Of a DNA stretch of 64,000 nucleotides, positions 5,794-38,421 are shown in pieces (position 1 is the first letter of the stretch; every line of letters begins with the position of its first letter). Below the pieces are notes generated by a model. The model saw nothing but the letters and a program-made list of their open reading frames with translations, did no database searches and had not been told where the DNA came from. This DNA is from Patescibacteria group bacterium (GTDB taxonomy: Bacteria > Patescibacteriota > Patescibacteriia > UBA9934 > GWF2-40-263): assembly GCA_004297215.1 (NCBI GenBank), contig SCUM01000002.1, forward strand, positions 70,270 through 134,269, given 5' to 3'. A program made the position numbers and the translations under genes.

Positions 5794-6264
5794 TTATTCT
5801 ACCGGTTCGAGGTAAAACTGATCCTCATCGAAGGAGTCTTTCTTGGCTGAATTAAGGTTCATTCCAGGGCTCTTGGGGGCGTCTTTCTCCTCCTCGCCCT
5901 GATAGGCCATGAACTGGCGAAGCACGTCCTCCCGTTCGCCGTCGCTCATTTTGCCTATATCCCAGGTGTCTCCGGCCTCGTTTGCCGGTTTCATGAGGTC
6001 AAAAAGGTCCGGCGGAGGCGCATCTTCGTCCTTAGGCTGCAATGGTCGGATGTCCCGATCTTGACGTAGGCTCGGACCATCCATCCTCCCCGTCCTTTCC
6101 ACCTTTTCAGTATTTTCGACCCTTTCAACCTTTCCGGGCCCCAAAAGCCCTTCATACTGGTCCAAACCCATCACCACGAAGGCGTCCTCGCCTTCCGGAT
6201 CGGTGATAATCACCCGATCTCCGGTGCGTTTCGACAGTTCCAGGATGCGGCGGATATTCTTCAT
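5794..6264 (-). CDS. Hypothetical acidic protein (156 aa)
   Basis: Intact ORF with ordinary, non-repetitive composition. No recognisable motif. A plausible TTGACA-type promoter lies upstream on the minus strand. Confidence 0.5.
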   Translation of the reverse strand: MKNIRRILELSKRTGDRVIITDPEGEDAFVVMGLDQYEGLLGPGKVERVENTEKVERTGRMDGPSLRQDRDIRPLQPKDEDAPPPDLFDLMKPANEAGDTWDIGKMSDGEREDVLRQFMAYQGEEEKDAPKSPGMNLNSAKKDSFDEDQFYLEPVE

Positions 6265-14474: not shown

Positions 14475-15188
14475 TCACTTCCCGTGTCGACGTTCGCGGG
14501 AGCGGTAGTCCTTGAGGGCGGCGAGGAAATCCTCTTCGCCGAAATCCGGGAACATCTTCTCCGAGAAATGGAGCTGCGCGTCGGCGATGTCCCACATCAT
14601 GAACCCGCCGCTCAAGTGCGGCTCCCCGCCCGTGCGGATCAGCAGGTCGACGGGAGGGAGGTCCTTGGTGAGCAGGTGCCGCTTGATGGTCTCGACATCA
14701 ACGCGGAGCGACGGATCCTTGCGGCCTTCTTCTACGATCTGCTCCACCGCTTGCGTCATCTCGCTGATGCCGTCGTAGCCGTCGAAAATGTTCAGCAGGT
14801 GCCGGTCGTTGGATTTCGTCTTCTCAATGACGCCCTCGATCGCCTTCACGAGGCTCGCCGGCTGGGATTCACGCCAGGACCCGAACGCCTGCACTCTCAC
14901 GCCATATTCATGCACCTCCGGCATCTCCTGGAGATCCAGAAAAAATTCCTCAAGCACCTTATACAGGAAGTCGATCTCGATTTTCGGACGGTTCGTGAGA
15001 TTCGAGACGGAGGCGACCCAGGCGGATACGCAATATACGCCCTCCTTGAAGGCGGCGTTCAGGATCGGCCGGAACCGGCGCGCGCCGGCGTCATGGCCTT
15101 CCCACGGGTTGAGGCCGTGCGCCTTGGCCCACCGGCGGTTGCCGTCGGGGATGATCGCGACATGACGCGGGGTTTGGTCGTCTGGCAT
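14475..15188 (-). CDS. uppS: Isoprenyl transferase / undecaprenyl diphosphate synthase
   Basis: HVAIIPDGNRRWA..., the conserved UPP-synthase N-terminus, and a C-terminal ...RTGGEPHLSGGFMMW... Confidence 0.9.
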   Translation of the reverse strand: MPDDQTPRHVAIIPDGNRRWAKAHGLNPWEGHDAGARRFRPILNAAFKEGVYCVSAWVASVSNLTNRPKIEIDFLYKVLEEFFLDLQEMPEVHEYGVRVQAFGSWRESQPASLVKAIEGVIEKTKSNDRHLLNIFDGYDGISEMTQAVEQIVEEGRKDPSLRVDVETIKRHLLTKDLPPVDLLIRTGGEPHLSGGFMMWDIADAQLHFSEKMFPDFGEEDFLAALKDYRSRERRHGK

Positions 15189-15236
15189 ATCAGATTCATC
15201 GCGCGACCCTCCGCGTCGTTGCTCATCGAACGTTCT

Positions 15237-15264
15237 GTCGGGCTAGCGGGACTTGAACCCGCGG
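15237..15264 (-). repeat. Duplicated 3' portion of tRNA-Pro (T-arm + acceptor 3' strand, 28 nt)
   Basis: GCCGCGGGTTCAAGTCCCGCTAGCCCGA is identical to the 3' end of the complete tRNA-Pro about 85 nt upstream. A copy of the anticodon-loop segment GCATGGGGTGCAA precedes it at 15325-15337, with a ~58-nt GC-rich palindromic insert between. Confidence 0.6.
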
Positions 15265-15346
15265 CCTCCCCCGACGCCCCTGATGGGGGTCGGGGCTCCG
15301 ACCTCCCCTCCGGGAGCGTCGGAGTTGCACCCCATGCTTCAAAATT

Positions 15347-15422
15347 TGGTCGGGCTAGCGGGACTTGAACCCGCGGCCTCTTGCACCCCATGCAAGCGCG
15401 CTACCAACTGCGCCATAGCCCG
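15347..15422 (-). tRNA. tRNA-Pro (anticodon GGG)
   Basis: Cloverleaf read by eye: acceptor CGGGCTA/TAGCCCG, D-arm GCGC-AGTTGGTA-GCGC, anticodon arm CTTGC-ATGGGGT-GCAAG, T-arm GCGGG-TTCAAGT-CCCGC, and CCA encoded. Confidence 0.85.
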
Positions 15423-15528
15423 ACCAAATTTTTAAGCATCCCGAGCGCGTACCAGGTCCGACGCGCTGATGCGGTCGGACCCCCGACCTCCCCCGACGCT
15501 CCGCTGCGGCGGAGGTCGGGGGAGCGTC

Positions 15529-15543
15529 GGGGCTGCGCCATAG
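15529..15543 (-). repeat. Duplicated 5' portion of tRNA-Pro (CGGGCTATGGCGCAG)
   Basis: An exact copy of tRNA-Pro positions 1-15, lying ~110 nt upstream of the gene in the same orientation and embedded in GC-rich palindromes. Confidence 0.5.
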
Positions 15544-15876
15544 CCCGACACAAGGTTCGATGAGTCGCGTGAACTCTAGCCGAAAACGAAAAAATGGCCA
15601 AGGCCATGGCGCCTCGCCAGTCGATCGGACCATTCGCGGAAGGATCCGATACGGCTACGGCACGTCCGGGTCACGATGATGAGAGCTTGTCGGCCCACCA
15701 TGCACGTTCCCGTACGCCGGTTTCAGTCAGGGATGCGAAGTGATTCTGGAACGCATCCGATCGACTGGGAGACTCCTACACCGTACCAGACCATCGAAGG
15801 CTGGCAAGCGTCGGAGCCGGACCATTATCCCCGAACTGTCCACGGAGTTATCCACATGGCATTTCATCGCTAAGAC

Positions 15877-15906
15877 AAAGAAAAATCCCGACAGCTAGTG
15901 TCGGGA
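15877..15906 (-). terminator. Intrinsic terminator (TCCCGACA-GCTAGT-GTCGGGA + U-run) overlapping stop of the 15895-16419 gene
   Basis: An 8-bp stem followed on the minus strand by TTTTTCTTTGTC. Confidence 0.5.
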
Positions 15907-16419
15907 AAGCGGGATGGACGACTCGCTTAAGAGCGAGGAGAACGGGACGAGCATCACCGTGAGGCGCGCGGGCAGCCGTGCCGGATGGCCTTGCACGCGC
16001 GCGTACAGGTCGTCGAGCATTTCGGCGTGCGCGAGCATGCCCGGCAGGTCCTGGTCGTCCACCACCAGGTACACCGGATGTCCCGACTCGATCGCCTCGC
16101 ACAGGACGACGAGGAACAGGTCGAGGACGTCGCGACGCAGGCCGCTCCCGGCCGGGCTGACGGACTTCACGAGCTTGGCACGGGCACCGAGATACGCGCT
16201 GCGCGTGAAGGCCTGCGCCTTGGGGTACGCCTTGCGCAGGTCCGCGAGCGCCTGCTCCGACGTGGCGTCTGGACACAACAGGCGGAGGCCGGCTTTCGCG
16301 AGCGCGCGATCCGCGAGCAGCGACGCATCCTTCGCGATCCGGAGCACGCCGCGGCCGGACGCCTGCTCGTTCGTGAGGTCGCGCAACGAACAGCGCTTGG
16401 TAAAAAGGGCGATACGCAT
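15895..16419 (-). CDS. Hypothetical protein (174 aa)
   Basis: Coherent ORF with balanced composition. The longer overlapping ORF 15848-16519 looks like an Arg/Pro-rich artefact. No confident domain call. Confidence 0.55.
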   Translation of the reverse strand: MRIALFTKRCSLRDLTNEQASGRGVLRIAKDASLLADRALAKAGLRLLCPDATSEQALADLRKAYPKAQAFTRSAYLGARAKLVKSVSPAGSGLRRDVLDLFLVVLCEAIESGHPVYLVVDDQDLPGMLAHAEMLDDLYARVQGHPARLPARLTVMLVPFSSLLSESSIPLSRH

Positions 16420-22098: not shown

Positions 22099-22395
22099 TC
22101 AATACAGATTACCACTCACGTCCGCCCAGATGGGATTCATCGAATCGATAAGGGCGATCTTTTTCCTTCGGACCCATCCTTTTATTTGTTTTTCCCTAGT
22201 GATTGCCTCGTAAGCCCCGGCGGATGCTTCGAAGTAGACCAGCTTGTTCACGTTATATTTAGCCGTGAAGCCCTTCACGACCTTCTGACGATGCTCGTAT
22301 ACGCGACGGACAAGATTATTCGTGATGCCCGTATACAGCACACGGTTGGTGACATTCGTGAGGATGTAGACGAAATATTGTCGGTCGTTTGCCAT
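22099..22395 (-). CDS. GIY-YIG nuclease family protein (98 aa, YhbQ/UPF0213-like)
   Basis: YFVYILTNVTNRVLYTGITNNLVRRVYEH is a GIY-YIG motif. The gene sits in a low-GC islet and is flanked by two direct copies of a 36-nt repeat. Confidence 0.85.
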   Translation of the reverse strand: MANDRQYFVYILTNVTNRVLYTGITNNLVRRVYEHRQKVVKGFTAKYNVNKLVYFEASAGAYEAITREKQIKGWVRRKKIALIDSMNPIWADVSGNLY

Positions 22396-38228: not shown

Positions 38229-38421
38229 ACGGAAATCCAATTGGTTGGATTGATGAATAATTGTCCACATGATACCGCGAACATAATCTTCAGACAACTC
38301 CGACGCTCCGGTGAGCCGGAGGTCGGAGTCCGACCCGCCAACAGGCGGCGTCGGACCTGTCAATCCACAGGCCGAACGGCTATACTGTACGCGACCGGCC
38401 GCAACGGACGGAGGATCCGTT

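Follow-up and report, generated by a model that had tools for sequence, protein, structure and literature searches.

A proline tRNA gene in a bacterium of the Candidate Phyla Radiation (CPR/Patescibacteria), near Candidatus Uhrbacteria, has quite probably been broken by three insertions and replaced in place by a copy nested within it. The locus lies 49 nt upstream of uppS–murA, on the same strand, in a 64,000-nt stretch of contig SCUM01000002.1 with a G+C content of ~64%. This stretch, the whole of the DNA analyzed here, is termed the window and supplies the numbering used throughout; the tRNA-Pro(GGG) locus is read on the minus strand, and nt numbers within the gene are tRNA positions. Two of the insertions are pairs of GC-rich hairpins, and the third is a 106-nt cassette that carries a complete tRNA-Pro(GGG). 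An initial annotation of the region had described an intact tRNA flanked by partial duplicates of itself, and had taken these for remnants of integrase-mediated integration and excision cycles or for an unusual permuted or intervening-sequence arrangement. Read as proposed here, the locus would record the breaking and in-place replacement of a small gene, relating it both to known tRNA gene debris and to repetitive extragenic palindromic (REP)-like elements.

Anatomy of the tRNA-Pro(GGG) locus

Relatives of the locus were found by scanning one genome per species for the tRNA 3′ end, which gave eight loci, and by a metagenome scan with the same query, which gave 33. The main reference among them is Candidatus Uhrbacteria RIFCSPHIGHO2_01_FULL_63_20 (L002; an identical sequence was recovered from a metagenome as L016). 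Its UppS protein is 78% identical to that of the window, and synteny with the window, at 72–88% DNA identity, is unbroken on both sides of the tRNA locus. UppS of a second relative, L044, is 76% identical. The uppS orthologues in L002/L016, L043 and L044 all sit directly downstream of tRNA-Pro; next to more distant UppS homologues, different tRNAs are found.

One tRNA is called at the locus by ARAGORN, with its intron mode included: the inner tRNA-Pro(GGG), just where the initial annotation had placed it. This gene matches Rfam family RF00005 with 67.4 bits over model positions 1–71 of 71 and has the features of a canonical bacterial tRNA-Pro, while no other tRNA and no intron family was detected by Rfam between positions 14900 and 15900 (E ≤ 10). 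Around it lie three exact repeats of its own sequence, of 32 nt (15237–15268 = 15349–15380), 13 nt (15325–15337 = 15381–15393) and 17 nt (15533–15549 = 15408–15424), the three pieces having blastn-short E-values of 5e-13, 0.007 and 0.1. More weight than these E-values is carried by the layout itself: the pieces are collinear, do not overlap and jointly rebuild a whole tRNA gene, and for that reason the repeats cannot be a matter of chance. The initial annotation had recognized all three copies. Its anticodon-loop copy holds as an exact 13-nt match; the 3′ copy is real and measures 32 nt rather than 28 nt. The copy of tRNA nt 1–15, likewise real, had been set 4 nt off at 15529–15543, and the end of the annotated feature at 15545 cuts through it. 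No further copy of the 3′ repeat, which would mark the boundary of an island, occurs within the window.

Alignment to the orthologous tRNA-Pro locus in relatives, which the initial annotation had recommended, reveals the insertions. Instead of sharing the window's arrangement, an outcome that the annotation had allowed for, L002/L016 and L044 each contain one uninterrupted tRNA-Pro gene upstream of uppS. In L002, the leader CTCATCGAACCTTGTG and the trailer ACAGAACGTTCGATGAG, the same as the outer ones of the window, bracket a single uninterrupted tRNA-Pro(GGG). When 15456–15532, 15338–15443 and 15269–15324 are removed in silico from the window, the remaining 176 nt are collinear with L002 from end to end, with four substitutions and two 1-nt deletions, and ARAGORN calls the rebuilt sequence as tRNA-Pro(GGG). 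The old gene, together with its 17-nt leader and its trailer (15222–15564, minus strand), is present as four collinear pieces separated by three insertions, the boundaries of which are clean at single tRNA positions. The cassette takes the place of one T in the 5′ strand of the anticodon stem, so the rebuilt exons lack two bases, one in the D stem and one in the anticodon stem. At position 16, the outer gene has C, as in L002, and the inner gene has T; the CCA end is encoded by the inner gene and not by the ancestral one. Because removal of the inserts restores a gene collinear with L002, and because nothing in the outer gene is duplicated, the partial copies are best understood as the remains of one ancestral gene. 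On this sequence comparison, it is quite probable that the four pieces were once a single tRNA-Pro(GGG), and that the anatomy and the direction of events are as described. The palindromic inserts of the initial annotation are likewise present: the upstream one is the 77-nt insert 1, and the downstream one, which had been put at ~58 nt, measures 56 nt (insert 2).

Two inverted repeats that are absent from the initial annotation complete the anatomy. I1 pairs 15334–15357 with 15416–15439 (24 nt, 96% complementary) and lengthens the acceptor stem of the inner gene by 17 bp. I2 does the same for the outer fragments by pairing 15222–15245 with 15541–15564 (24 nt, 92% complementary), with I1 nested inside it. 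The predicted fold of the 356-nt region consists of nested cloverleaves (−233 kcal/mol, z = −11.9). These data show a disrupted old gene that does not yield a tRNA call any more, and leave the nested copy as the sole intact tRNA-Pro(GGG) there. Table 1 lists the features.

Table 1. Features of the tRNA-Pro(GGG) locus and its surroundings
Feature	Position	Strand	Basis or remark
uppS (undecaprenyl diphosphate synthase)	14475–15188	−	Pfam PF01255, 4.5e-55; synteny anchor, downstream of the tRNA
Ancestral trailer CAGAACGTTCGATGAG, no encoded CCA; 3′ arm of the outer helix	15222–15237	−	I2; identical in L002; uppS start 34 nt beyond
Old tRNA nt 43–73 (variable loop, T arm, acceptor 3′ strand, discriminator)	15238–15268	−	Within the 32-nt repeat; collinear with L002
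Insert 2, 56 nt, between nt 42 and 43	15269–15324	.	Absent from L002, L044 and L043
Old tRNA nt 30–42 GCATGGGGTGCAA (anticodon loop, most of the stem)	15325–15337	−	Exact 13-nt match; collinear with L002
Cassette, 106 nt, in the anticodon stem: CGGGATGCTTAAAAATTTGGT + 76-nt tRNA with CCA + AATTTTGAA	15338–15443	−	I1; L002 alignment
Cassette 3′ flank AATTTTGAA; with A73-CCA and GCAT of the old gene, 3′ arm of the inner helix	15338–15346	−	I1
Complete tRNA-Pro(GGG), encoded CCA; presumed working gene	15347–15422	−	ARAGORN; RF00005
Cassette 5′ flank CGGGATGCTTAAAAATTTGGT; ATGCTTAAAAATTTGGT forms the 5′ arm of the inner helix	15423–15443	−	I1
Old tRNA nt 16–28 CTGGTACGCGCT, one D-stem G lost	15444–15455	−	Reconstructed gene aligned to L002
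Insert 1, 77 nt, in the D loop between nt 15 and 16	15456–15532	.	Absent from L002 and L044
Old tRNA-Pro(GGG) nt 1–15 (acceptor 5′ strand, D stem 5′ strand, start of D loop)	15533–15547	−	Exact 15-nt match; collinear with L002
Ancestral (outer) 17-nt leader CTCATCGAACCTTGTGT; 5′ arm of the outer helix	15548–15564	−	I2; also the leader of the single gene in L002/L016
Putative promoter of the ancestral tRNA: TTGGCC (15596–15601), 17-nt spacer, TAGAGT (15573–15578)	15573–15601	−	Read from the sequence, by inference
Third REP-like doublet, divergent intergenic region between a pilin-like ORF and pilB (T2SSE)	38298–38357	+	DNA fold −27.5 kcal/mol, z = −6.3; hairpin scan

Hairpin doublets, the leader–trailer helix and comparable loci

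Both inserts are doublets of hairpins that share one build: CCGAC...GTCGG feet, a variable stem of 3–6 bp and a 4-nt loop. A single bulged base lies on opposite arms of the two hairpins of a doublet, marking them as mutually inverted. Insert 1 comprises a hairpin (15481–15532) with a further hairpin nested in its loop (core 15493–15519), followed by a second one at 15456–15480, and its DNA folds with −40.5 kcal/mol (z = −8.2). In insert 2, two oppositely oriented hairpins occupy 15296–15324 and 15269–15295 (−25 kcal/mol, z = −5.5). Related palindromes upstream of pilB, noticed in the initial annotation at 38297–38365, resolve into a third such doublet (Table 1). Since MAFFT gave no structure-consistent alignment for a covariance model, the family was delimited by an explicit foot–stem–loop search with a Markov null, in which ~1 hairpin was expected; the search returned six canonical hairpins in the window and a seventh that a nested copy divides, and every one of them belongs to the three doublets. 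All 25 nt of 15456–15480 are identical to a hairpin in L048. There, in L048/L049 (UppS 59% identical), a doublet lies in an unrelated intergenic region, and its first hairpin is the one that matches. A scan of viral contigs with the REP hairpin returned no match.

The doublets in the tRNA gene are precise insertions without target duplication, their empty sites being known. The left flanks read GCAG, GCAA and ACAA, too few sites to define a target. That two of three doublets fall inside a 74-nt old gene would have P ~4e-4 in a post hoc test that spreads them evenly over the window's 6.5 kb of non-coding DNA, and the doublets appear to prefer the loops of the tRNA gene. None of the hairpins carries a U-tract. 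All three doublets of the 64-kb window are extragenic and consist of paired inverted hairpins, as in REP/REPIN elements, and by these sequence features they are a REP/REPIN-like family of putatively mobile palindromes. They resemble REP, BIME and REPIN elements, mobilized by RAYT enzymes, as well as IS200/IS605-derived PATEs, in being GC-rich imperfect palindromes of ~25–30 nt with a single bulged base, in forming oppositely oriented pairs that are extragenic and lack target duplications, in differing in presence and absence among relatives, and in occurring as near-identical copies in divergent genomes. They differ from these systems in that only three doublets occur in 64 kb, with no RAYT or Y1 transposase seen in the window, in that two of the three copies lie inside a tRNA remnant, and in the placement of a hairpin within a hairpin loop. 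Moreover, enterobacterial and pseudomonad REPs have a GTAG-type head, from which the foot motif of the window differs. Rickettsia palindromic elements (RPEs) offer a second parallel: in a reduced genome, they and palindromic repeats like them are small insertions within otherwise conserved genes, some of which encode RNAs. Genes that have received an RPE usually retain their function, which distinguishes them from the present host gene, where no tRNA call remains and an intact copy lies inside. REP-like hairpin elements are, on these comparisons, shown to exist and to move in CPR/Patescibacteria, where a search of the open-access literature retrieved no description of nested tRNA genes or of REP-like elements.

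The second structural element is a helix formed by the leader and the trailer of the gene. In the inner gene, 16 of 17 leader positions are complementary to the trailer, against a mean of 4.7 (standard deviation 2.0, maximum 11) for mismatched flank pairs. Among the 29 distinct tRNA-Pro(GGG) genes from the retrieved loci, a complementarity of at least 13/17 is also reached by L002, L020 and L040 (14 each) and by L004 and L025 (13 each). L044 holds the helix with a different sequence, and the differences between L044 and L002 are compensatory changes. Across eight helix-type genes, a set partly picked for complementarity (L044 was not), 14 of the 17 flank pairs have changed on both sides, and 88% of cells pair, compared with 26–43% in controls with slid partners. 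We observed this ~17-bp pairing, continuous with the acceptor stem and subject to compensatory change, in the inner gene, in the outer arms (92% complementary over 24 nt) and in the resident, debris-free genes of L002, L044 and L025, while the four other tRNAs of the window lack it. Covariation in the aligned sequences shows the leader–trailer helix to be a selected feature of a tRNA-Pro(GGG) gene subtype, now defined by its covarying 17-bp helix, and a role in processing is testable.

The flanks also bear on the origin of the cassette. Counted by eye, the inner and outer flanks of the window are identical at 8/17 positions on either side, and the flanks of L020 share 17 of 24 compared positions with both inner and outer window flanks (background 7.6 ± 2.8). 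Being unlike the outer flanks and like those of the L020 cassette, the inner flanks rule out a simple local tandem duplication, and at other loci, too, no repeat of the upstream flank is seen in the spacer that follows a 5′ fragment. This divergence, together with the likeness across lineages, indicates a diverged relative of the resident gene rather than a fresh local copy. The cassette is a complete tRNA-Pro(GGG) of the same subtype, with an AT-rich helix that has diverged from the resident one and appears homologous to it. Two further candidate origins were rejected. Campbell-type homologous recombination with a foreign tRNA would, by reasoning, yield two hybrid full copies and not a nested one. 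A retro-copy of a mature tRNA, hinted at by the encoded CCA, is not supported, since the CCA belongs to the helix and is missing from other cassettes of the helix type.

Comparable combinations of an old fragment, a hairpin and a new gene are also found where tRNA-Pro(GGG) is encoded in other CPR bacteria. A second case that is anchored on both sides is L020, which consists of old nt 1–35, a CCCGCC...GGCGGG hairpin in the anticodon, nt 36–50 and then a new helix-type gene, the old 3′ part being lost as well; L015 and L028 share the flanks of L020 around a plain gene. In L004, found in the genome scan, a hairpin occupies this anticodon position of the old 5′ part, and a new helix-type gene and old 3′ pieces that bear further hairpins are present as well. 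L040 and L005 have a common old 13-nt 5′ fragment plus hairpin, with differing new genes. In addition, 9-nt 5′ fragments occur in L017 and L041, and 3′ portions bearing hairpins in L022 and L029. The junction in the old gene varies among lineages, falling after nt 9, 13, 28, ~42 or 50.

Several side observations were made at these loci. L005 and L040 share their upstream flank, and the leaders and trailers of their new tRNAs differ, as does the DNA downstream; either the tRNA has been turned over repeatedly, it seems, or synteny breaks there. The hairpins of the dead tRNA-Pro copies in L004 and L020, which belong to two different lineages, occupy the same anticodon site (after nt 35/36 depending on D-loop length, mid-anticodon GG^GG) and are followed by TAAA/TATA, suggesting site-specific insertion. 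In other dead copies, TCC(C)GCC hairpins directly follow the GTT of the D loop (CAGTT^; L022, L005 and L040) or of the T loop (GGTT^; L004), and there may be a GTT-directed family of hairpin elements in AT-richer CPR genomes. L030 and L032, from two different genomes, contain a conserved element of ~130–190 nt, gaacgccggagcgat...gcgaggcggtggctagYccgagc...gaggcgaagcc, between a tRNA-Pro(CGG)-like gene and a duplicate of its last ~20 nt; it looks like a small element that targets tRNA 3′ ends. Finally, L013 has a repeat of the last 14–17 nt of tRNA-Pro 35 nt downstream, and behind it the spacer occurs once more, in what looks like an attachment-site (att)-like mini-repeat with nothing between the copies.

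Proposed history and competing explanations

In the history that we favor, the hairpin doublets would have moved as hairpin-forming single-stranded DNA, in the manner of REPIN or IS200/IS605-type elements, into exposed loops of a cloverleaf-prone gene. The cassette would most likely derive from another CPR lineage with a helix-type gene, and would have entered a break at the tip of the anticodon hairpin, either as a copy or by ligation, through non-homologous joining guided by microhomology. The end of the cassette trailer and old nt 30–33 have GCAT in common, and only one T was lost. Such capture at a break is a tentative proposal for the route of entry, to which we give somewhat less than even credence. 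The cassette would then have been kept because it restores, or never interrupts, the supply of tRNA-Pro(GGG). Transcription of the nested gene would start at the TTGGCC-17-TAGAGT block (15601–15573), i.e., from the old promoter, and produce a highly structured precursor; since the hairpins have no U-tracts, it should read through them. The putative promoter block is kept in the alignment with L002 and L044. It scores 8/12, under the threshold of the consensus scan for sigma-70 promoters, which found nothing at threshold. Ordinary tRNA-end processing would release the inner tRNA, perhaps after RNase III has cut the 24-bp helices. The old pieces would be pseudogene debris that persists through the promoter and leader they carry, or simply because the events are recent.

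Several points weigh against this history. An uninterrupted gene is seen in two relatives only (L002/L016 and L044), as the L043 contig begins at the anticodon and is uninformative in this respect. The inner tRNA body differs from the resident type at position 16 alone, and because the bodies are nearly identical, it is from the flanks that the case for a foreign origin is made; gene conversion may have blurred the record. No donor of the cassette was found in the scanned genomes and metagenomes, and no enzyme able to move hairpins or cassette (integrase, transposase or RAYT) was found among the 42 ORFs (open reading frames) scanned in the window, which covers only a part of the genome. Moreover, untargeted capture of a tRNA-Pro(GGG) cassette precisely into its cognate gene is very unlikely. 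Such precision favors a targeted mechanism, unless selection or homology guides the event. Either a targeting step is needed, or selection, given that a promoter-less tRNA works only there and harms nothing.

In a rival route to the same anatomy, the 106-nt unit would be an active, non-autonomous mobile tRNA minigene whose ends are formed by the helix. It would be mobilized in trans by an enzyme specific for hairpins in single-stranded DNA, perhaps the doublets' own, and would insert into its cognate tRNA gene and compensate for the damage by supplying the tRNA. The ends of the cassette do coincide with the ends of the helix; the three insertions are confined to the apical part of a gene prone to form cruciforms, with insert 1 forming a hairpin in a hairpin loop; the REP doublets are concentrated in the old gene; helix-type genes lie in or beside old tRNA-Pro fragments at four independent loci (window, L004, L020 and L040); and cassette flanks are alike across lineages. 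We nevertheless consider this route, the main rival, unlikely, as the helix is also found in the stable, debris-free residents, where it shows the compensatory evolution of a functional RNA helix. In addition, the junction with the old gene differs between lineages, L020 has lost the old 3′ part too, there is neither a target-site duplication nor a conserved end motif, the cassette ends are unlike the CCGAC/GTCGG feet of the hairpins, and no transposase was found among the 42 window ORFs. The broader proposition that CPR bacteria harbor a family of ~105-nt self-compensating mobile tRNA minigenes, each a tRNA-Pro(GGG) with its leader–trailer helix, is more doubtful again. Members of such a family would insert at loops exposed when the cognate gene extrudes as a cloverleaf in single-stranded DNA; by destroying the resident gene and taking over its function, they would become indispensable to the host, and the enzyme that spreads the REP-like doublets might move them too. 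Group I introns, inteins and IStrons are comparable self-compensating selfish elements, in which the inserted DNA renders an insertion into an important gene harmless. Compensation at the present locus would come from a replacement gene copy and not from splicing, with no endonuclease or ribozyme involved, and any homing would be hypothetical. If the cassette were mobile, it would represent a new class of self-compensating selfish element, maintained through addiction by gene replacement at the scale of a tRNA, and would help to account for the remnants of tRNA genes by which the annotation of tRNAs in metagenome-assembled genomes is misled.

The integrase reading of the initial annotation can be restated as att-type scars (attL/attR) of tyrosine-integrase elements that entered the anticodon region of tRNA-Pro(GGG) and were later deleted. 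It has real precedents. In positive controls from IMG/VR, a Pfam-confirmed tyrosine integrase immediately adjoins the 3′ side of the tRNA (L056) or of a 3′ fragment that starts at the D arm (L060). These controls, together with L059, establish tRNA-Pro(GGG) as a genuine integration site elsewhere. The partial copy beside an intact gene, the break in the anticodon arm, the downstream fragment that begins in the anticodon stem, and the 3′-end repeats at other CPR loci (L013, L029, L030 and L032) fit such a pattern as well. What largely refutes it is that the pieces, nt 1–15, 16–28, 30–42 and 43–73, are collinear and non-overlapping and make up exactly one gene with the ancestral leader and trailer retained; they complement each other instead of duplicating a core. 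Integrase footprints, for which classes of sublocation within tRNA genes have reportedly been set out, are said normally to leave no 5′ piece upstream, and here such a piece lies upstream with the ancestral leader. The inner leader pairs with the trailer, unlike remnants of two unrelated elements. No recombinase adjoins the tRNA or a fragment at the window locus, no integrase was found among the scanned ORFs, and the search for Y1_Tnp-type matches among the same 42 ORFs returned none. Direct repeats bounding cargo are lacking: only a tRNA gene and hairpins lie between the pieces, the 106-nt unit being a 76-nt tRNA gene with 30 nt of flanks, and there is no bounded island. The viral-contig scan with the tRNA 3′ end gave no match, and synteny with L002/L016 is whole on both sides. 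We therefore regard integrase scars as a very improbable source of the fragments, and the habit of taking tRNA fragments for an integrase island gains a documented alternative, namely in-place breakage and replacement by very small insertions. Among the IMG/VR contigs, L054–L060 are proviruses of other phyla integrated at tRNA-Pro(GGG), and the 3′ fragments of L059 and L060 start at the anticodon stem and the D arm, respectively.

The intervening-sequence arrangement raised in the initial annotation holds at the DNA level, where the old gene is interrupted three times, and fails as an intron, split or permuted tRNA: intron-mode ARAGORN finds the inner gene only, no intron family is present, and one of the interrupting sequences is itself the presumed working tRNA. 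Could the outer gene nonetheless function, its intervening sequences being removed from the RNA? Its acceptor stem, T arm and leader–trailer helix are intact, the predicted fold draws the pieces together, and the interruptions sit at or near loops—in the D loop, the anticodon arm and near the variable loop, as in archaeal multi-intron, split and permuted tRNAs and in bacterial tRNAs with group I introns. The leaders of split tRNA halves also pair with each other, like the flanks here. On the other side, no group I, group II or other intron family was detected at E ≤ 10, and no recognizable intron with exons that rebuild an intact tRNA was found, in an analysis that included no explicit search for bulge-helix-bulge motifs. 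The exons have suffered damage, having lost one D-stem and one anticodon-stem base; the inserts belong to a dispersed hairpin family that also occurs outside tRNAs (38298–38357; L048); relatives are uninterrupted; and an intact copy inside makes the outer gene redundant. Bacteria are not known to possess a pathway with a tRNA splicing endonuclease that would remove inserts of this type, and a functional outer gene is the least credible of the explanations considered. Hardly more credible is an assembly artifact, with mis-joined reads producing the nested repeats. The window does come from a metagenome-assembled genome, and short-read contigs break at the locus (L001 and L043). L001, which is a separate Logan assembly made from the same sample, has its first base at the third position of the 32-nt repeat, and is read as a k=31 assembly break at a real repeat, k=31 being the value that we take Logan to use. 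In our assessment, repeats of at most 32 nt are shorter than usual assembly k-mers; furthermore, the outer and inner copies differ (C16 versus T16, and the flanks), nested arrangements occur in the independent assemblies L004, L020 and L040, and the boundaries of the inserts are clean at single tRNA positions.

Genomic neighborhood

The neighbors of the locus are uppS, murA, two ORFs without a family match, and ndk. Neither of the two ORFs upstream of the tRNA matched anything in Pfam, PHROGs or NCBIfam. The one directly upstream (15895–16419, minus strand; 174 aa), without a match in the same three collections, ends at a terminator-like hairpin (15886–15906) and is missing from the syntenic region of L002/L016. 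Homologues of a neighboring 371-aa ORF were found on short contigs only. Among closer relatives, no intermediate states of the locus were found, UppS homologues of >60% identity numbering three.

Farther from the locus, a free-standing 98-aa ORF with a GIY-YIG nuclease domain (22099–22395, minus strand; Pfam 1e-16) and low G+C at third codon positions (GC3) sits in a low-GC patch, at a position syntenic to a tRNA-Thr gene of L002. It could be a homing-type nuclease, and no link between it and the tRNA-Pro locus was found in the window. A 156-aa ORF at 5794–6264 (minus strand), also with low GC3, weakly matches the Phd/YefM antitoxin in its N-terminus (24.9 bits, under the Pfam cutoff). Between 19380 and 20498, a stretch of 1.1 kb has no ORF chosen by a GC3-based gene picker, which is odd for a genome that is ~90% coding. 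Finally, type IV pilus genes are present in the window, as is a gene for a protein with a metallo-beta-lactamase fold of the kind that ComEC contains; both are associated with DNA uptake in CPR bacteria.

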